A stretch of 64,000 nt of DNA from an uncultured delta proteobacterium (GTDB lineage Bacteria > Desulfobacterota > Binatia > Binatales > Binataceae). The position numbers were made by a program, and so were the translations under genes. The notes under the pieces were generated by a model. The model was given only the letters and a program-made list of their open reading frames with translations. It was not told the origin of the DNA and did not search any database. Numbering within the stretch: position 1 is the first letter of the stretch; each line of letters starts with the position of its first letter. The stretch covers positions 1-64,000 of the forward strand of contig CAVRVY010000004.1 in the NCBI GenBank assembly GCA_963724765.1. Direction: 5' to 3'. Below are positions 3,581 to 38,952 of the stretch, in pieces.

Positions 3581-5060
3581 ATGAGCAATCTCGGCGACCG
3601 TCTGGACAAGCTCACTCCGGAGAAGCGCGCACTCCTGGAGCGCCAGCTCCTGCAACGCCGGGCCGCGGTCCTGGCGGACCCCGGCAGGGACGGCAAGCTC
3701 CGCCGGCGGGGCCCGGACGACCCGCTGCTGCTGTCGTACTCCCAGCAGCAGCTGTGGTTCCTCCAGGAGTGGAACAAGGAGGGCGCCGCCTACAACGCCA
3801 GCCTCAACCTCCGGCTCGAGGGAGATCTCGACGAGGATGCACTCCGTCGCTCGTTCCAACTGATCGTCGAGCGCCACGAGACCCTTCGGACCGTCATTGC
3901 CGACGACGGCGGATACCCGTCGCCCGGCTCATCGAACAGCCGGTCTTCGACTTCCACGAGGTCGATCTCCAGGGGGAAGGGGCACGGAGCGACGAGGAGC
4001 TGGCCGTTGCCGTCCGCAGTGTGGTCCTCCAACCGTTCGACCTCAGCAAGGACCTGATGCTCCGGGTCGGTCTCATCCGGATCGGACCCGAGGATCGGGT
4101 GATCTGCATGGTGCTCCACCACATCGCCTGCGACGGTGGTCACGGGGCATCCTCTTCGACGAACTGACGGCGCTGTACATCGGGTTCACCTCCGGACACC
4201 CCGCCGAGTTGGCGGAACTCCCGGTGCAGTACGGCGACTTCGTCATGTGGCAACAGGAATGGCTGAGCGGTGCCGTCCTCAAAGGCGAGATCGACTTCTG
4301 GAGCGAGGAGCTGTCCGGGACCGACTTCGTGCTGGACCTTCCGACTGACCACGTGCGCCCGAGCGTGCTCACCTTCATCGGCGGTCGCCTGGGATTCACC
4401 ATCCCGGCTCCGGTGGCCGATCGCATGCGCAGCCTGGGAAGGGAGGAGCGGGCCACGATCTTCATGGTCGTCCACGCGGCCACCGGGATGCTGCTCAACG
4501 CCCTCACCGGTCAGGACGACTTCCTGGTGGGAAGCCCGGTGGGGAGCAGACGGTGGCCGGACACCGAGCCGCTGATCGGGTTCTTCGTCAACACGCTGCT
4601 GCTCCGGCTAAGGATGACCGGCGACCCCTCGTTCCGCGAACTCGTACGACGGTGCCGGGAGACGGCGGTGAGCTGCTACGCACACCAGGACATCCCCTTC
4701 GAGCGCATCGTGCAGGCACTGCGCCCCAAGCGCCACCCCGATCGCAATCCGCTGTTCCAAGTGAACCTCAGAATGCAGGGGCCCTCGCCTGCTCCACCCG
4801 AGCTGCCCGGACTGCGAGCCTCACGGGTGAGCGTCGGTCTCGGATCGTCCCGGTTCGACCTGGCCCTCGGGTTCGTCGATGCACCTGGCGAACTGGAAGG
4901 CTACGTCGAATACAACTCGGCACTGTTCGAGGGCTCCACCATCGAACGATGGATGACCGCCTTCATCGAGGTGCTCGCCGTGGCGTGCGAGAACCCCGAT
5001 CGGCCACTGTCCGAGTTGGCGGCGGCACTACGGGAACAGGCCGGAGTCACCCTCCCCTAG
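3581..5060 (+). CDS. Free-standing NRPS condensation-domain protein with N-terminal docking-like helix (frameshifts near 3920 and 4138)
   Basis: ATG at 3581 gives MSNLGDRLDKLTPEKRALLERQL; LSYSQQQLWFL, RHETLRT, HHIACDG, LPVQYGDF, LIGFFVNTL, HQDIPFE. Stop at 5060 with no A domain following. Confidence 0.8.
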
Positions 5061-5078
5061 CCGCCGCGACCGGCGGAG

Positions 5079-5807
5079 TCAGCCTGCCGTCACCCTGTCG
5101 ATCGCACCCGAGAGCCGGGCTATGACGGTGGGATGGAACGTATTGTCGAGCACCGGAGTGACCTGCCATGCCGGGTCGTCTTCGAAGAGTTCGGCGAATT
5201 GCGCCATGTAGTACACGAGGGTGATGTCGGCATCCGGGCCTCGCAGATTCGTCAAATGATCTTTGAACTTCTCCGTGACTTCACGATTGAATGGATTGAA
5301 GATGAAGAAGATGGTTCCATCTTCGGGAATCAGATCGAACGCGTCGCCGCAGAGGATGTCGACGTTGGGGAACCGCTCCAATCGGCGGCGGGCGAACTCG
5401 GCCCACCGCTCGTCGATCTCGATCCCGACCATGTGGTTGCGAAGGCCCCGATGGAGCCAGTAGTTCAGGACCCTGCCCTTGCCGCACCCCACATCGACCA
5501 GGACATCGGACTCGTCGATGTGCACATTGTGCTCGAGGAATGCCTTGCCGACGTAGTAGTACTGGATACTCGACGTACCGCGGTAGCCCCGATCATTCCA
5601 CCGGCTGTGATACGTCCCCCCGCAGCGCCCTCCATACTGCTCATCGATGAGAAAATCTCGAATGGTTTCGATTCCATACCGCGGCTTCGTGACTCGCAGA
5701 CTCCAGCGCCATTTGAGGTGCTCGATATCAGTGATATGGGTCAGATCACGACGGATCCGGGCCCAGGTCCATTCCCGTTGAGGCGCCCGATCAGGATCCG
5801 AAGGCAT
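5079..5807 (-). CDS. Class I SAM-dependent methyltransferase
   Basis: Motif I VLVDVGCGKGR, GIEID, CGDAF, FFIFNPF. Confidence 0.85.
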   Translation of the reverse strand: MPSDPDRAPQREWTWARIRRDLTHITDIEHLKWRWSLRVTKPRYGIETIRDFLIDEQYGGRCGGTYHSRWNDRGYRGTSSIQYYYVGKAFLEHNVHIDESDVLVDVGCGKGRVLNYWLHRGLRNHMVGIEIDERWAEFARRRLERFPNVDILCGDAFDLIPEDGTIFFIFNPFNREVTEKFKDHLTNLRGPDADITLVYYMAQFAELFEDDPAWQVTPVLDNTFHPTVIARLSGAIDRVTAG

Positions 5808-34092: not shown

Positions 34093-35172
34093 ATGGCGGT
34101 CGAAACGGCGCTTTCCATTCTCCGTGCGGGCGAACGTGCGACGCTCGCATCGGCGATCGTAATCAGCGGCCCTCACGCGTTTTTGCGCGAATACGTCTTC
34201 GACACTGTGCGGCGGCGGATGCTGCGGCAGGGGATGAAGTACCGCGGCTTCCAGGTGGGCGGCGCAGAGGGCTTCGACGCCGCGCTCGCGGAGTTGCGCG
34301 AAGCCGACCTGTTCGCGCCGGTGCGGGTCGTCGGATGCCGCGTGCTGCGTTCGCATCGCGGCGGCGGAGAACAGAATGACGACGGCGGCGACGAAGGCGC
34401 AGCGTCCGGCAAATCGCGCTCGGGCGCGGGCGGCAGTGAAGCGGCGCTCGCCGAGGCGCTCGAGACGATGCGCGGTCCGGGAGCGCTGATCGTCGTTTAT
34501 GAGCGCGATACGGCGCCGGCCAAAATCCGCCGCGCAGTAGAGCAGGGCGGGCTTGCGATAAACTGCCCGCGCGCCTACGACAACCAGCTCATGCAATTCG
34601 CCGAAGCCTTCGCCCGCGTCCAGGATTTGCGCCTCGGACCCGGCGTCGCCGAACTGCTGATTTCGCGCCACGCCGGCGACCTCTCCGCGATCGCCAACAC
34701 GCTCGCCAAGGCCGCGATCCATCGCGAGCCCGGGGCTACGCTCAGCCCGGCCGACCTCGGCGAGCCGGCGGCGGCCAAAATTCCCGATCTGTTCGAGCTG
34801 GCCGAGGCGCTCTCGAACGGGCGTGCGGCGGCCGCGCTTGCGGTGCTGGGGCGCGCGATCGCCGCGGGGCGCGATCCGTTCGAATTGCTGGCGGTCGAGA
34901 TCGCCCCGGTGATGCGGCGGATGATGCTGGCGGCGTCGATGGCGGCGCACAAGCAGAGCGCGCCGCAAATCGCCGCGGCGCTCGGGATGTCGCCGTCAAG
35001 CCCGCTCGCGATGCGCGCGATCGAGGGTGCGCGCCGCTTCGGGATGGTGCGGCTGACTGAGGCCTATCGGCGGGTCGTGCAACTCGACGCCGACTTCAAA
35101 AACGGACGAATCAAGGAGCGCGAAGAGGCGCTGGCCGGGATGCTGCTCGAGCTGATGTCGCCGCGGGTCTAA
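34093..35172 (+). CDS. holA: DNA polymerase III delta subunit
   Basis: DLFAP, GDLSAIANTLAK, FELAEAL, DADFKNG; convergent with rpsT, the usual arrangement. Confidence 0.8.
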   Translation: MAVETALSILRAGERATLASAIVISGPHAFLREYVFDTVRRRMLRQGMKYRGFQVGGAEGFDAALAELREADLFAPVRVVGCRVLRSHRGGGEQNDDGGDEGAASGKSRSGAGGSEAALAEALETMRGPGALIVVYERDTAPAKIRRAVEQGGLAINCPRAYDNQLMQFAEAFARVQDLRLGPGVAELLISRHAGDLSAIANTLAKAAIHREPGATLSPADLGEPAAAKIPDLFELAEALSNGRAAAALAVLGRAIAAGRDPFELLAVEIAPVMRRMMLAASMAAHKQSAPQIAAALGMSPSSPLAMRAIEGARRFGMVRLTEAYRRVVQLDADFKNGRIKEREEALAGMLLELMSPRV

Positions 35173-35176
35173 GCGA

Positions 35177-35467
35177 TCAGGCTTTGGCGGCGGCGCCGTG
35201 CTTGCGATGCAACGCGCGGGAGAGCCGCGCGATCTTGCGCGACACGGTGTTGCGATGGAGCGCACCCTTGCCGGCGGCCTTGCAGAGCACGCGGGTCGCC
35301 TGGCGCAGCTCCTGCGTGGCGCTGGCGGCGTCGGTGCCCTCGATCGCCTTGACGGCCTGTTTGACTGCGCTGTGTACGCGGGTCTTTATCGCACGATTGC
35401 GGTCGCGCCGCTTGAGGCTCTGGCGATGGCGCTTCTCTGCTGACGGGTGAACTGGAATATGCGGCAT
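35177..35467 (-). CDS. rpsT: 30S ribosomal protein S20
   Basis: SAEKRHRQSLKRRDRNR, KGALHRNTVSRKIARL. Confidence 0.95.
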   Translation of the reverse strand: MPHIPVHPSAEKRHRQSLKRRDRNRAIKTRVHSAVKQAVKAIEGTDAASATQELRQATRVLCKAAGKGALHRNTVSRKIARLSRALHRKHGAAAKA

Positions 35468-35529
35468 AACCAGTCTTAGCTAACAGTGCCAGCGCGCCAG
35501 GTCAATACGCGGCGAATTTGGGTAGTGTC

Positions 35530-36029
35530 CTAATTTGAATTCTGGCGAGGCCGGGTAGGCTGTTCAGGAAGTGGGCGCAACTTATTTTCGCGCTCCTTCC
35601 GTTGTTCTGTCCGACCGTAAATAAGCGCGCCGATAAGCGAACCTACCGCGAGAATGATTGCAGCAAAGCCTTCAAGACTTCTCCCTTCTGCGAGTAAATA
35701 GACACCACCGCAGATCACAACGAGTGCGAGAATGAAGGCGAACCATTGACCTCGGCCTTGTGCTTTGCAGTTGCTCTCAACAACCGCCTTTTCAAGCCCC
35801 TGCCTGTGTGCCGACTGCCTTTCTGCCATAGCAACGACGCGCTCAGCGCAACCCAAGCGAACGCGTCGTTGTAACCTTTGAGAAGTTGAGGTGGTGGTAA
35901 AGGCCCAGAGAACTGGAAAGTTTGCTGAACTCTTAATTCGGTAGTTGATCGGCCGGATGCTTCCGCTGGCTCTGAACCCTCGTCGTCAATCTCCGGCTCT
36001 ACCGAATCGTCGTCGTCATTTTCGGCCAT
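35530..36029 (-). CDS. DUF2335-like membrane protein (frameshift near 35855), element cargo
   Basis: FSGPLPPP..L..Y in one frame, AERVVAMAERQSAHR plus two TM helices in the other. The stop lies inside the left TIR. Confidence 0.75.
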
Positions 36030-36360
36030 GCGCTTGCTTTAAGGGGGTAGCAGTTGCCCTCTTTCTGTGAACAGAATAATCAGTCGCCTTACCGCATGAC
36101 GGGCACACAGAGCGGCCGTCTATCCTTTTTTCCATATTTCCAGATTCATCTTGGTGGACCAAAAACCAAGAATCCCTAAGGGTTTGGCCAACGATGCGCC
36201 AATCGCTATAAAGCGCACGCATATCGGCCTCTTCGGTCGTCCGGCTCACGTTGTAGTCGTCAAATTTGCCCCACAGATCTAGGGCGCGGCCAACTCCCGA
36301 CCAGAACGAGGGTCGCGCATAGAGGAAATCTGCACGGACATCTCTTTCTTCATCACCCAT
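36016..36360 (-). CDS. Hypothetical protein, element cargo
   Basis: FLYARPSFWSG...ALYSDWRIVG, CPSC; overlaps the start of the DUF2335-like gene. Confidence 0.6.
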   Translation of the reverse strand: MGDEERDVRADFLYARPSFWSGVGRALDLWGKFDDYNVSRTTEEADMRALYSDWRIVGQTLRDSWFLVHQDESGNMEKRIDGRSVCPSCGKATDYSVHRKRATATPLKQAHGRK

Positions 36361-36392
36361 GTTTTATATTCTATAGGACAATACCCCTCGAA

Positions 36393-37235
36393 TCAGCAAG
36401 CAAAAGAGCCCTCCTCTCTGGCCGCTTCCAACAGGGTTTCGATAGACCATAGCCGATCCGTGACGCCAGCGGCCATTGCCGGCGTACAGCACAGCGTCCG
36501 ATGGACGCGGACGAAATTGTAATGGGCGAAGTGGAGACAGACCGCCGCTGCGTGATTCACCCGTTTCTTGCTGAAACCGTTGGTCAGCCGTGTAAATCGG
36601 CGCATCTGCATCCGCATGGTTAAATTCCGCTTAACATACGACGTTGAAATGTGCTCATCATCGGGATTGCCGATGATTGGATCGCGTTCGCACTTCATCA
36701 ATATCGACGGAGAGTAGCGGCCACGGCCAGCATTCAACTCCGACGCAAAAACCTTATGAATCTGTGCATAATCGACGTTATTGCCGAACACTTCCATGAT
36801 CGTCCCGTAATACGGCTGAAAAGCATCGCTAGTGATTTGCGGCCTGTTTACAATCCGTCCCTTCAAATCCGCGATGAATTCAGCGTTATCACTCATAGGG
36901 CGTCTTCCGACATGGAAGCTCGGCACTAGCTTGGTATCCGCATCAATGGCAACGAAAGTATAAACGTCACCAAATTCGTCCGTCTTATTGAGCATTCTGG
37001 CGGTTTTCTGCTTCATCCCGACACACGCCCAAATCTCATCAAGCTGGAGACGCTTGCAAGTAAGGCCGCGCATCACGTTGTCCATCAGCCGGTCGCAGCC
37101 GTCACCGACGCTCACCGCCAATCGCATAATGGTGTCTCTGTGAATGCCGGTCATCCTTTCGATGCTACGAATGGAGTTGCCTTCAACTAGTGCTGCAATG
37201 ACTTGACACTGGCATTCACGATCCAGCTTGTTCAT
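36393..37235 (-). CDS. IS1-family DDE transposase, probably inactive
   Basis: N-terminal HTH LVEGNSIRSIERMTG; QLDEIW; AIDADTKL; ITSDAF; ISTSYVKRNLTMRMQMRRFTRLTNGFSKK; YNFVRVHRTL..TPAMAAG. Confidence 0.88.
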   Translation of the reverse strand: MNKLDRECQCQVIAALVEGNSIRSIERMTGIHRDTIMRLAVSVGDGCDRLMDNVMRGLTCKRLQLDEIWACVGMKQKTARMLNKTDEFGDVYTFVAIDADTKLVPSFHVGRRPMSDNAEFIADLKGRIVNRPQITSDAFQPYYGTIMEVFGNNVDYAQIHKVFASELNAGRGRYSPSILMKCERDPIIGNPDDEHISTSYVKRNLTMRMQMRRFTRLTNGFSKKRVNHAAAVCLHFAHYNFVRVHRTLCCTPAMAAGVTDRLWSIETLLEAAREEGSFAC

Positions 37236-37370
37236 ACAAGCAAATATACTTGAGCGCATATGCAATATCAAGCGGATATGCTTGACCACTACTAAGAGAC
37301 AGTTGAGGAAAACTCCGAACCATGCTACAAGAATCAAAGGATCGGAATGCTCCGTGGTTGATGGTAGTTT

Positions 37371-37443
37371 CACGCCCGAGAGGAATTGAACCTCCATCTA
37401 CCGGATTCGAATCCGGTGCTCTGGCCAATTGAGCTACGGGCGC
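37371..37443 (-). tRNA. tRNA-Arg(UCG)-like gene with a 6-nt anticodon loop (pseudo-tRNA or 1-nt deletion); no encoded CCA
   Basis: Reverse complement folds as GCGCCCG-TA-GCTC-AATTGGCCA-GAGC-A-CCGGA-TTCGAA-TCCGG-TAGAT-GGAGG-TTCAATT-CCTCT-CGGGCGT-G. Confidence 0.75.
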
Positions 37444-37496
37444 AAACTCGATCCAGAACCGCTTTGGCGCTGGCACGCTGAGGCGGTTCGCTTTTT

Positions 37497-37940
37497 CTAG
37501 CTGCTATTCACAGTGCCTTCCTTACCGTTGGCTGCCAGAGTTCCCACTAAACTAGCGAACTTTACTCGGCCCTGGTCTGTCAAAGAATATGTCGTTACGT
37601 ACCGTTTATTGACATATCCCGGCCTTCGGTTAATAAGACCTTCAAAATCCAGTTTCTTGCGCTCGCACCACTTTTTGAGGGTGCGCAAGACTGGCGGTAA
37701 ACTCTTTGCTCCAATACCGAGCTCAAGGGCTAGCTGGTCGGTATTGAGGCCGGAAGTGGATTTCAACAGAGCGTTTAGGAACAGCTTGGTGGGTTCGGTC
37801 AGCTCGATAGCTTTGGGTGCTGTTGGCTTAGTCCGATCAACCGAGCGAGGTTTCTGTGTTGGCCGCCTAGATTGCAGCTTGCGCAATTCCTCGATGGTGT
37901 CGCACTCGACAACGCCGTTGGACAACATTCGAAAAGCCAT
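37497..37940 (-). CDS. Hypothetical protein, possible winged-helix DNA-binding protein, element cargo
   Basis: Basic protein; helix-turn-helix-like TDQLALELGIGAKSLPPVLRTL followed by YSLTDQG. Confidence 0.55.
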   Translation of the reverse strand: MAFRMLSNGVVECDTIEELRKLQSRRPTQKPRSVDRTKPTAPKAIELTEPTKLFLNALLKSTSGLNTDQLALELGIGAKSLPPVLRTLKKWCERKKLDFEGLINRRPGYVNKRYVTTYSLTDQGRVKFASLVGTLAANGKEGTVNSS

Positions 37941-37980
37941 ACGGAAGAAATAGCACAGTTGATGCGGGTCCGCAATCTAT

Positions 37981-38271
37981 CTACTGTGCGGTATCGCCCT
38001 TATCGGCTGTGTGTGAAGGGAGTCCTTGCTGTTGCGGACGTTTCCAGCGCGCAACGGCCGCTTTGCGCGCAATTTCCTTGCGCTTCTTGGCCGACAGCTT
38101 TTCAGCGCGAGCACGTCCGCCCTTCAACCCGCCGAGCCGTCCGAGCGCTACTGCGTTCGGATTTTTGGTTGGATCTTGTTCTTCGACAGGAAGATCACCT
38201 GAAATCGCGTCGATGAGGTTGGCCGCCATCTGGTTAACGTCCGGTTTGCCGGTTCTTGAGCGCTTAGGCAT
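37981..38271 (-). CDS. Small basic protein of the KNPxAVALGRLGGLKGG type
   Basis: KNPNAVALGRLGGLKGGRARAEKLSAKKRKEIARKAAVARW; first gene inside the right TIR. Confidence 0.8.
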   Translation of the reverse strand: MPKRSRTGKPDVNQMAANLIDAISGDLPVEEQDPTKNPNAVALGRLGGLKGGRARAEKLSAKKRKEIARKAAVARWKRPQQQGLPSHTADKGDTAQ

Positions 38272-38412
38272 CCATCAATGATGCATGGATGCCGCAATTC
38301 TGGCAAATTCAAATTAGGACATTACCCGAATTTGGGTCCCGGCGGCACGCCACTAACGATTCGTTAAAGGTTCTACCTTTAACTTGTCTAGACCGCGGGA
38401 TAAAACCTGATC

Positions 38413-38688
38413 ATGAAAGCTCGCCACGCAACCGTGCTCGTCCTGGTCGGATGGTATCTACTAAGCCCGGCATCTCCATCTGGAAGCTCCGGTTATCTGA
38501 GTAGGCTTCAAGACCGAGTGTTCGGACCGGCCTCGATCCCCCCGATGTCGGAGTGGAATCAATTGGGCGCTTTTGACACAGCGGAAAGATGCGAGGCCGC
38601 GAAAATTCAAATCGGGAATTCCGGCGGAGAGAATATCGGTCAAGCCGTTTGTATTGCTTCGGACGATCCTCGCTTAAAAAGAAATTAG
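38413..38688 (+). CDS. Small secreted protein, GWYL...C...CIASDDPRLK family
   Basis: Hydrophobic N-terminus ending GWYL, two Cys, C-terminal CIASDDPRLK; paralog at 55432. Confidence 0.7.
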   Translation: MKARHATVLVLVGWYLLSPASPSGSSGYLSRLQDRVFGPASIPPMSEWNQLGAFDTAERCEAAKIQIGNSGGENIGQAVCIASDDPRLKRN

Positions 38689-38952
38689 GGCACTCTTCTT
38701 TTAAACTTACGATAAATCCGCCTCACGGAAAAAAATCAGAACGAGGAAGCGCCACAGAGGACAGACATCCGCGCTTCCTCGCTCGCCCGTCACCCTTTCC
38801 CTCCGGCAAGACAATAGGTGGAGGGAGTCAGGGGCGCTTGACCGCTGATCTTCAGATCCCTTTTCTTGAAACAGATAGAGGTTTCAGGTCCGGGATGTGG
38901 GCGGAGCCGCGGACCGCGTACTCGCCTAAATTGGCGTGAAATATGATGGGAG

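Follow-up and report, generated by a model that had tools for sequence, protein, structure and literature searches.

The window analysed here, a stretch of 64,000 nucleotides (contig CAVRVY010000004.1, positions 1–64,000, assembly GCA_963724765.1) from an uncultured delta proteobacterium of the Binataceae, carries at 35521–38326 a complete insertion sequence (IS) of 2,806 bp in which four protein genes and a tRNA-like gene accompany the transposase. All of its genes lie on the minus strand and follow one another, in the orientation of the transposase, as p96, p147, the tRNA-like gene, the transposase gene, p114 and a gene for a DUF2335 membrane protein. The element is a complete member, present in a single copy, of a widespread IS1-related family of transporter ISs (tISs), and we regard both the element and its family assignment as close to certain. 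While the element is a new member of the IS1-related tISs, the new aspects lie in a tRNA slot upstream of the transposase and in the alanine-type RNA with a stop anticodon that occupies this slot in relatives.

Element ends

A reading made from the letters alone (hereafter the sequence-only reading) had described the element as fully delimited by 21-bp inverted repeats and an 8-bp duplication, with every gene on the minus strand and an insertion just upstream of rpsT, and all of this is borne out. The terminal inverted repeats, GGTAGTGTCCTAATTTGAATT on the left (35521–35541, the end downstream of the transposase) and, on the right (38306–38326), a sequence whose reverse complement is GGTAATGTCCTAATTTGAATT, agree at 20 of 21 positions, the mismatch being base 5, and have the termini GGTAGTG and GGTAATG; a repeat finder reports the pair as 27-nt arms with 93% complementarity. 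Exact copies of the octamer CGAATTTG flank them at 35513–35520 and 38327–38334. The element lies 53 bp upstream of the start codon of rpsT, a minus-strand gene at 35177–35467. GC content is 0.48–0.56 inside the element and 0.63–0.73 in the flanks, a difference in base composition that points to a foreign origin.

Contigs from four public sequencing runs (peat, soil and sediment; four studies) cover the element with zero indels; no RNA sequencing run was found to contain it. The left junction is bridged by contigs of runs X1 (34921–35712), X2 (35394–35586) and X3 (35381–35655) and the right junction by a contig of X3 (38029–38379), every one of them identical to the window, and in these runs contigs from other organisms carry the terminus too but depart from the window precisely at 35520/35521, identifying this position as the true boundary of the element. 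The 5.4-Mb host genome holds a single full-length copy, the partial matches elsewhere falling on the host tRNA-Arg and on two distant relatives of the transposase. At C1:1070029–1070856 and C2:54564–55310 that genome has two further transposase genes from the same superfamily, 45% and 49% identical; no T-loop motif was found within 700 nt upstream of either, nor any ends in the fetched loci.

A distant IS1-type transposase

The transposase is a DDE protein of 280 residues (36393–37235, minus strand), recognised by the NCBIfam profile NF033558 and by homologue alignment; one uninterrupted open reading frame (ORF) holds both an N-terminal helix-turn-helix (HTH; Pfam HTH_29) and the DDE part, with no InsA/InsB′ −1 frameshift arrangement. 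The frame stays open over 36393–37397, into the tRNA-like gene; an alignment of 25 homologues, in which M1 and L4 never vary, places the start at the ATG of position 37235. A promoter, TTGATA-17-TATATT (37243–37271, minus strand; 10 of 12 consensus matches), ends 7 nt before this ATG, and in an alignment a cluster of 51 relatives shows the corresponding TTGACA...TATAAT...ATG arrangement, with the ATG 6–9 nt past the −10 box. A promoter downstream of the slot and a start codon so close to the −10 box suggest a near-leaderless transposase messenger RNA (mRNA) that does not depend on the slot.

IS1 ends begin with GGTRATG (GG(T)nnTG) and IS1 insertions make 8–9-bp duplications, and the window element shows both. 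The two overlapping ORFs with a −1 frameshift belong to classical IS1 only, single-ORF IS1 subgroups also existing. In profile searches NF033558 is the best NCBIfam transposase family for 25 of 25 relatives (best E 9e-15) and PF03400 the best Pfam transposase family for 24 of 25 (best E 9.6e-6), all below the curated cut-offs; the window transposase itself matches NF033558 at E 1.5e-8 with 34.8 bits (curated cut-off 100) and does not reach PF03400 at E 0.01. The call of an IS1-related transporter IS in the sequence-only reading is thus upheld, IS1 being the best family throughout nearly all of these comparisons, albeit at scores under the cut-offs. ISfinder presumably also holds an IS1 subgroup, ISMhu11, which we take to reach lengths of about 4.6 kb; the word ISMhu11 is absent from the literature searched.

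Summed contig depth over the 3′ part of the transposase gene (36407–36543) reaches 150–320 in three of the four metagenomes, against about 2–5 elsewhere, and 8 in the fourth run (X2); the jump marks a conserved stretch common to many related transposase genes in those communities.

A family of cargo-bearing relatives

Transposase homologues were collected and the cargo between their ends tabulated, ARAGORN hits included, as the sequence-only reading had proposed. The first transposase search scored 8000 candidates, all of which matched, and the 170 loci examined comprise the window (L005), 9 loci from related genomes, 80 metagenome contigs and 80 genome contigs; counts throughout include near-duplicates (L043/L044, L045/L046, L052/L056, L071/L154, L040/L138 and L080/L081) and kin that are not independent. 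Named homologues are labelled 'IS1 family transposase', several of them from Candidatus Binataceae, and the titles of the genome contigs span more than eight phylum-level groups. Inverted ends of the GGT(A/G)nTG type, sought by script to both sides of the transposase, could be paired in 95 loci, and exact 8- or 9-bp duplications flank 85 of the 170, with the same 17-nt terminus, metagenome contigs often being truncated. These 85 delimited elements measure 2057–5448 bp (median 3121), and none among them is a bare, IS-sized form. The central position that had been ascribed to the transposase does not carry over to the family: in many relatives the gene ends 12–27 bp from the right end, with the extra DNA upstream, whereas in the window element 875 bp (p114 and the DUF2335 gene) lie downstream of it.

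Two unrelated small genes recur. Of the 170 loci, 49 have a homologue of p96, which invariably precedes the transposase, in sense orientation in 36 and antisense in 13, and is often the first gene, 55–85 nt from the end; c3, of about 100 residues and unrelated to p96, is present in another 49, usually antisense and with zero overlap with the p96 loci, and its partner c6, of about 270 residues, in 18, of which 15 also have c3. The 'dedicated accessory protein' of the sequence-only reading therefore recurs as p96, yet is replaced by c3 in as many loci: the recurrent accessory gene marks a lineage and not the whole family. Among cultured carriers, transposase genes of 43–46% identity are found on plasmids of Mesorhizobium loti, Acidiphilium multivorum, Hoeflea and Methylocapsa. 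The Methylocapsa gene is annotated as a helix-turn-helix protein, the other three solely as 'IS1 family transposase', and that of M. loti is preceded, at the position of p96, by a small 'histone H1' gene.

Other cargo is scattered among relatives. Genes for GNAT acetyltransferases occur in L045 and L051, the former giving the sole Pfam pass (Acetyltransf_1, 21.5 bits against a cut-off of 20.7) in a scan of L045 only. A 69%-identical relative in a metagenome-assembled genome labelled deltaproteobacterial has a DUF3800-IX RNA (RF02968) inside its ends (L117:2669–2740, plus strand; 52.1 bits, gathering score 36.8), another structured RNA travelling as IS cargo. On the Acidiphilium multivorum plasmid (L206), genes for a RES-domain toxin and an MbcA/ParS/Xre antitoxin at 4883–5721 are neighbours, and possible cargo, just downstream of the IS1-like transposase gene.

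A tRNA slot upstream of the transposase

ARAGORN at default settings and a covariance model of our own, applied to all 170 loci, detect 49 tRNA or tRNA-like features within the 700 nt upstream of the transposase in 45 loci, every one on the transposase strand and none antisense, and all 25 slot features that belong to delimited elements lie inside the ends. The 700 nt on the downstream side yield five tRNAs, all with ordinary anticodons (Arg-UCG, Lys-CUU, Ser-UGA, Asp-GUC and Arg-UCU), and the two in delimited loci both lie outside the element. Setting apart the largest group of occupants, described below, the ARAGORN calls carry the anticodons ACU (four), UUA (four), UAU (three) and, once each, CGA, UGC, CAA, GCU, GUA and UGG, together with the defective loop of the window gene, the only one among them that is not 7 nt long; a fifth ACU tRNA, in L184, lies 824 nt upstream of the transposase. 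UUA is found on at least three different scaffolds, among them the long-variable-arm, Leu- or Ser-like scaffolds of L064, L094 and L151, and UAU on long-variable-arm scaffolds in L089, L147 and L162. With good confidence we take the slot to be a real, selected feature of the family. In the clade of the window element the only occupants are those of the window, of L015 (ACU) and of L112 (loop UUCGAAA on a degenerate stem), and Rfam scans of 17 loci of this clade reveal no other tRNA upstream of the transposase.

In the window element the slot holds a gene derived from tRNA-Arg(UCG) (37371–37443, minus strand), identified by the Rfam tRNA model and by ARAGORN, without a 7-nt anticodon loop and without an encoded CCA. 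It scores 60 bits against RF00005 (gathering score 29) with one anticodon-loop position missing, and ARAGORN returns it as 'tRNA-???' with anticodon 'cg', a 5-bp stem and the 6-nt loop UUCGAA. Identity to the host tRNA-Arg(UCG) is 81%; the two genes agree in their acceptor stem, and that of the element has one loop base fewer and a G-to-A change. Contigs of the four runs cover 37370–37444 with no indels, one run having G>A at 37374. As the sequence-only reading had it, an RNA gene is among the contents of the element; its anticodon loop has only 6 nt, however, and the slot it fills, occupied in 45 of 170 loci, is no one-off.

The 7-bp acceptor stem, 5-bp T stem and 4–5-nt variable region of the window RNA are those of a tRNA, and its minimum-energy fold (−32.1 kcal/mol, z −3.9) is otherwise a clean cloverleaf. 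The anticodon arm GGATTCGAATCC, by contrast, is a palindrome and therefore closes to 7 bp with a UCGA tetraloop. As far as this fold allows a judgement, the RNA cannot present an anticodon or decode, and it is probably still processable like a tRNA. Its D-loop reads GGCC, where the host tRNA-Arg, L112, L015 and L138 have GGAC and L163 has GGAT, all five keeping the A at a position that we take to be A20, an arginine identity base; C35 is another arginine element, for which the 6-nt loop offers no defined position. The gene ends ...GGGCGTG followed by AAAC, and four of six extracted host tRNA-Arg genes were shown to end in CCA, a sequence that can also be added enzymatically. A 14-pair hairpin (37456–37489) separates the tRNA-like gene from the stop codon of p147 and reads as a terminator only on the plus strand.

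Tandem pairs of tRNA-like genes fill the slot in L024 (2765–2914) and L034 (3860–4024), the upstream member in L034 having the loop GUCAGCA (CAG) on a G3·U70 scaffold. Elsewhere in the host genome ARAGORN reports a 95-nt 'tRNA-???' (anticodon 'ta') beside a tRNA-SeC(tca) at C1:1040721–1040913, a 'tRNA-???' with a 4-letter anticodon (ggaa) at C2:392592–392672 and a second tRNA-SeC(tca) at C3:1323593–1323688; the odd tRNAs among these could be allo-tRNA-like genes.

An alanine-type tRNA-like RNA

The largest group of slot occupants is a tRNA-like RNA of 71–74 nt that ends 21–68 nt before the transposase ATG (349 nt in one case, 336 nt in a weaker match). Eighteen copies gave an alignment (A3) and a covariance model (R1), which finds 14 further copies, 13 on the same strand upstream of the transposase and one, in L063, antisense about 1.1 kb upstream; 30 rows fitted to the model form a second alignment (A4). 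In A4 base pairing in the acceptor and T stems reaches 99%, compensatory changes are present in 8 of 12 pairs, and 12 of 17 pairs have changed on both sides, a figure that none of 500 shuffles and no slid register came near; A3 agrees. G1-C72, G2-C71, G3·U70 and A73 are invariant in all 30 copies, the 7-nt loop is NYUUACA or CCCUACA (UUA in 22, CUA in 5, others in 3), and CCA is encoded in 12 of the 30. A search with R1 up to E 1 gives no match anywhere in the window, which marks the window RNA as a different, Arg-type occupant of the same slot.

Searched with 4227 Rfam families in eight loci, the R1 RNA reaches no gathering score; its sub-threshold matches are to transfer-messenger RNA (tmRNA; 30.4 and 20.1 bits, gathering score 47), mascRNA (30.9 and 26.1; 42.5) and tRNA-Sec (26.1; 47). 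Scores of R1 itself below about 46 bits are unspecific, and the matches of about 45 bits in 151 Acidobacteriota genomes proved to be mostly ordinary host tRNA-Lys genes.

A FastTree phylogeny of 162 of the 170 transposases (eight with an ORF under 230 residues from the predicted start were left out, among them the R1-carrying L043 and L044), read as leaf order and minimum changes only, needs 17 changes for presence and absence and places 25 of 27 R1-carrying rows in one run of 29 leaves. The transposases of these carriers are only 43–100% identical (median 66%), and the single run despite such low identity suggests that the RNA has been inherited with the transposase over a long divergence. 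It accompanies the c3 lineage in 21 of 27 cases. Transposase genes end in TAA or TAG in 24 of 29 R1-RNA loci and in 73 of 138 elsewhere, a comparison between dependent kin in which TAG partly lies inside the conserved end and from which we draw no conclusion.

From the same scan of Acidobacteriota genomes come two more G3·U70 RNAs, with CUA or UUA loops (L198:1501–1570; L200, reverse, about 1501–1572), which lie directly beside genes for transposases of the IS1595 family; these match Pfam PF12762 at E 1.9e-42 and 1.7e-14 and are not IS1-like.

Protein cargo and insertion site of the window element

Four passenger ORFs had been read in the element, and four protein genes are indeed present, one of them, for the DUF2335 protein, as a frameshifted pseudogene. 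The first gene, p96 (37981–38271, minus strand), encodes a basic, helical protein of 96 residues with the conserved motif ...LGRxGGLKGGxARA..LS..KR..IA.KAA.ARW; an AlphaFold model has three helices (pLDDT 69, pTM 0.29), and its size, charge and position lead us to guess that it is probably a DNA-binding regulator. A promoter-like site, TTGCCA-17-CATCAT (38278–38306, minus strand; 9 of 12 matches), stretches from the inner edge of the inverted repeat to 6 nt before the p96 ATG, but as the number of such sites across the region equals the shuffle expectation, a p96 promoter here is only suggestive.

Next comes p147 (37497–37940, minus strand; 147 residues), which the sequence-only reading called winged-helix-like; the likeness is a weak one, to Pfam HTH_34 at E 0.0028, under the cut-off. 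Its one distant homologue, in the same position in L121 (28% identity, E 1e-14), has the same weak match. Downstream of the transposase, p114 (36016–36360, minus strand) is an ORF of 114 codons with no family match above noise and no homologue in the other 169 loci. The DUF2335 gene (35530–36029, minus strand) is split into ORFs at 35715–36029 and 35530–35856 in two frames: an N-terminal part including ...FSGPLPPPQLLKGYNDAF stands in one frame, and the Pfam-matching ...GCAERVVAMAERQSAHRQ... stands in another. The C-terminal ORF matches Pfam at E 2.7e-7 (30.8 bits, cut-off 25; profile positions 15–50 of 50), an identical contig covers the region in another run (X2), and DUF2335 was found in none of the other loci among the 170 examined. 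Searches of p96, p147, p114, c3 and c6 against Pfam, NCBIfam, PADLOC, PHROGs and PDB sequences gave nothing above noise save phrog_2384 (unknown function) for p96. Cargo was rightly called variable, with an RNA gene among it, and most of what the window element carries is private.

Neither a search of 20 relatives, 12 of them congeneric, with the two flanks nor an alignment of 7 loci turned up an uninterrupted CGAATTTG as the empty site. Homology on the rpsT side ends in relatives at about 35510, 3 bp short of the duplication, and the 366 nt to the right of the element (38327–38692) are matched, among 12 same-genus genomes, only by genome G005, at 79% identity; 38693–38720 has no match in any searched genome. 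At the place homologous to 35440–38420, upstream of rpsT, G005 (L110, contig C18) has a degenerate copy of the right end (...CCAAATTAGGCCAGTACC), then GAAGTTTG and the same right flank, with a second end-like fragment about 50 bp before the first, a duplication-like octamer and no transposase.

Beside the element, the 618 bp up to a mazG-like gene (38335–38952) have a GC content of 0.52–0.54 and contain a 91-codon ORF (38413–38688) whose product has a hydrophobic N-terminus; this segment has the look of another indel, older than the IS insertion. Within about 38720–38845, some 100 nt match dozens of places (74–93% identity) in the host genome and in 9 of 12 same-genus genomes, and behave like a dispersed short repeat of the MITE or REP kind. 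Seven further sites in the host genome lie within three mismatches of the 17-nt terminus. Chance is estimated to give about 12 such sites (about 0.8 with at most two mismatches) and so covers all but the lone match at C3:433039 (plus strand), where the first 15 bases of the terminus are exact (GGTAGTGTCCTAATT...); this, the only such site that looks real, is probably a solo end belonging to a related element.

Function of the slot RNAs

The explanation that we favour, and consider rather probable, is that the window carries an old IS1-related element with a decaying slot tRNA, and that the slot tRNAs of the family are aminoacylated modifiers of decoding. By analogy with IS1, the 280-residue transposase, made from its own near-leaderless promoter, would bind the 21-bp GGTAGTG/GGTAATG ends and integrate the element with an 8-bp stagger, giving rise to the CGAATTTG duplication upstream of rpsT. 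The slot in relatives holds structurally intact tRNAs or a conserved RNA of alanine identity, mostly with stop (UUA or CUA) or unusual (ACU, UAU) anticodons, and the window copy would be an old insertion with decaying cargo, its RNA the relic of a formerly chargeable tRNA and at most a structural or processing RNA. We read this copy as decaying from its palindromic anticodon hairpin, the C for A in its D-loop and the DUF2335 frameshift, and its single-copy state and the degenerate right end at the homologous place in G005 suggest that the insertion is old; on these grounds we lean, if only slightly, towards the window RNA being a non-decoding relic.

For the slot RNAs of the family, the most likely role that their sequences suggest is that of nonsense or missense suppressors carried as cargo; that slot RNAs in general decode has, in our estimate, somewhat less than an even chance. 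Synthetases for alanine, serine and leucine ignore the anticodon. Support for decoding comes from the invariant alanine identity set, from the restriction to stop anticodons, from UUA on Leu- and Ser-like scaffolds and from earlier work in which G3:U70 allo-tRNAs with wild-type GCG or UUA anticodons, converted to CUA, are described as inserting mainly alanine in Escherichia coli (Mukai et al. 2017, NAR, PMC5389517). A wider proposal, which we offer tentatively, is that IS1-like and some IS1595-like elements could be vehicles of one mobile decoding-modifier module across soil phyla. Such a module would use scaffolds that tolerate a changed anticodon (Ala with G3·U70, Ser- or Leu-like, Arg with C35/U36) and would read stop codons (UUA, CUA) or codons that normally lack a tRNA of their own (ACU, UAU).

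Several observations weigh against this explanation. The acceptor, D and T arms of the window RNA are still perfect, which could reflect selection for a non-decoding role instead of decay. R1 RNAs have C37 in 28 of 30 copies, C33 in place of U in 10 of 30 (CCTTACA, CCCTACA), G8 and a reduced D-arm, features unusual for working tRNAs. Nothing was detected in the slot of 125 of the 170 loci, and the module would accordingly be dispensable for transposition. Genes that a suppressor might serve show little sign of it: internal stops occur in the transposase of 1 of 20 R1-RNA loci and of three others, and in none of the 49 best matches of c3 and 18 of c6, and c3 and c6 show no avoidance of TAA or TAG stops. 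Six allo-tRNA(UAU) variants, moreover, are described as inactive in E. coli (Mukai et al., PMC5389517).

The strongest rival makes the slot a cis-acting module for RNA processing or insulation, in which RNase P and 3′ enzymes would separate the transposase message from transcripts of the upstream cargo or of outside origin, decoding would play no part and the window RNA would still be functional. The strict strand and position (49 features against 0 antisense), the interchangeability of Arg-like, Ala-like and long-variable-arm Leu- or Ser-like scaffolds, the mere 21–68 nt between R1 RNA and ATG, the tRNA fold that the window RNA has kept (z −3.9, 60 bits) despite its lost anticodon loop, and the co-orientation of the window genes upstream of it with the transposase all fit such a role. 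Processing has no need, however, of a G3·U70 and an A73 invariant in 30 of 30 copies, where the G·U could become G-C, nor of a YUA loop in 27 of 30; the transposase promoter that follows the slot in the window and 51 relatives means that a processed co-transcript is not required; and the module is missing from most loci. We think this account doubtful.

It is unlikely that the window gene is a host-type tRNA-Arg captured by chance, decayed and functionless, and that the family pattern has no functional meaning. Such a history would suit the 81% identity to the host tRNA-Arg(UCG) with its identical acceptor stem, the degenerate anticodon arms of the window and L112, the presence of a tRNA in only three members of the window clade and the unique or broken state of the other cargo; it does not explain why 45 of 170 loci are occupied at the same place and in the same orientation, inside the ends where these are known, why ACU recurs in four slot tRNAs (with a fifth in L184) and UUA on at least three scaffolds, why a tRNA-like RNA is retained across transposases at 43–66% identity, or why tRNAs outside the elements have ordinary anticodons.

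We give still less weight to slot RNAs as regulatory or protective non-coding RNAs tied to toxin–antitoxin or defence functions, for instance as decoys or targets of anticodon nucleases or of toxins that modify tRNAs, which would be very unlikely. The UACA that is invariant at positions 35–38 in 27 of 30 R1 RNAs does resemble a recognition sequence more than an anticodon context, and relatives carry GNAT genes or adjoin the RES/Xre pair of the Acidiphilium plasmid; yet no toxin gene is consistently linked, c3, c6 and p96 match no Pfam or PADLOC family, the window element has no recognisable toxin, and the tie between UACA and endoribonuclease specificity is a putative one. An assembly artefact or chimera, at which a four-contig assembly with 5.16% estimated contamination and a GC content unlike that of the flanks might hint, has a negligible probability given the identical contigs from three further runs across the left junction and one across the right, and the indel-free coverage of 37370–37444 in four runs, of which at least two or three are independent (the best may be the origin sample).

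Comparison with known systems

With IS1 the element shares its best profile, the N-terminal HTH, the GGTAGTG/GGTAATG ends and, across the family, the 8- or 9-bp duplications; the family differs in scores far under the cut-offs, a single ORF, extra genes and lengths of 2.1–5.4 kb instead of about 0.8 kb. Transporter ISs, which enclose passenger genes between their two IS ends, are described as an established class (PMC9330008). Like them, the element encloses its passengers, four protein genes (one broken) and one RNA gene, within one end pair served by a single transposase; its family differs from them in the lack of a bare form among 85 delimited members and in its recurrent p96 or c3 and tRNA slot. 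ISs are usually seen as a transposase and two ends to which passengers are incidental, and annotation pipelines label these 2–5-kb units merely 'IS1 family transposase'; here a family that is never bare among its delimited copies holds a gene for an RNA of the translation apparatus, repeatedly and in one fixed position, across at least eight phylum-level groups from soil, peat and sediment and on plasmids of cultured rhizobia and Acidiphilium. In the full-text literature searched, no IS1-family element is described with a tRNA or tRNA-like gene as a constant component. The message of the window itself is modest: one old, single-copy element beside rpsT, its cargo partly broken.

Among structured RNAs, the R1 RNA resembles the tRNA-like domain of tmRNA and mascRNA in its Ala-type G3·U70 acceptor and canonical T-arm, and differs from both in having an anticodon-like arm with a 7-nt loop, no mRNA-like part and a place inside an IS. 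Phage suppressor tRNAs are like the slot RNAs in that a mobile element carries an anticodon matching a stop codon; they serve recoded in-frame stops in the phage's own genes, whereas no in-frame stops were found here in the element genes examined, and the carrier is an IS of 2–5 kb. If the slot RNAs are active, ISs would spread low-level nonsense and missense suppression horizontally or tune their own expression, and the 71–74-nt Ala-type RNA would be a new class of natural suppressor; if they are processing signals instead, a bacterial transposon would be using tRNA punctuation to control its transposase. Either way, the R1 model gives a handle on an RNA class without a match at Rfam gathering scores.

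The closest precedent is provided by the allo-tRNAs of Mukai et al. The text of that work describes irregular tRNAs 'associated with transposable elements' in soil Acidobacteria (PMC5389517), and together with a 2020 review it lists UAU and UUA species, members of alanine identity and pseudogenes among them (PMC5389517, PMC7609411). As there described, they share with the slot RNAs an origin in soil, peat or sediment, non-cognate or stop anticodons (UAU, UUA), the G3·U70 alanine identity and pseudogene-like members. They differ in structure: allo-tRNAs are described as splitting a 12-bp acceptor branch 8/4 or 9/3 and as having a long variable arm, whereas the R1 RNA, of 71–74 nt, has a 7/5 branch, no long variable arm and a reduced D-arm, and the window RNA, an ordinary 7/5 Arg-type cloverleaf, has neither of these defining features of allo-tRNAs. 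Some slot tRNAs of relatives, such as the UAU tRNA of L162 (8 + 3 in ARAGORN), may themselves qualify as allo-tRNAs. The main-text passages of Mukai et al. name no transposon family, ends, fixed position before a transposase or short 7/5 class, although figures or supplements may show the transposase of this family beside allo-tRNAs. If the slot RNAs are charged and decode, mobile elements would move suppressor activity between genomes, and the link between irregular tRNAs and transposons drawn in 2017 would gain a defined carrier.

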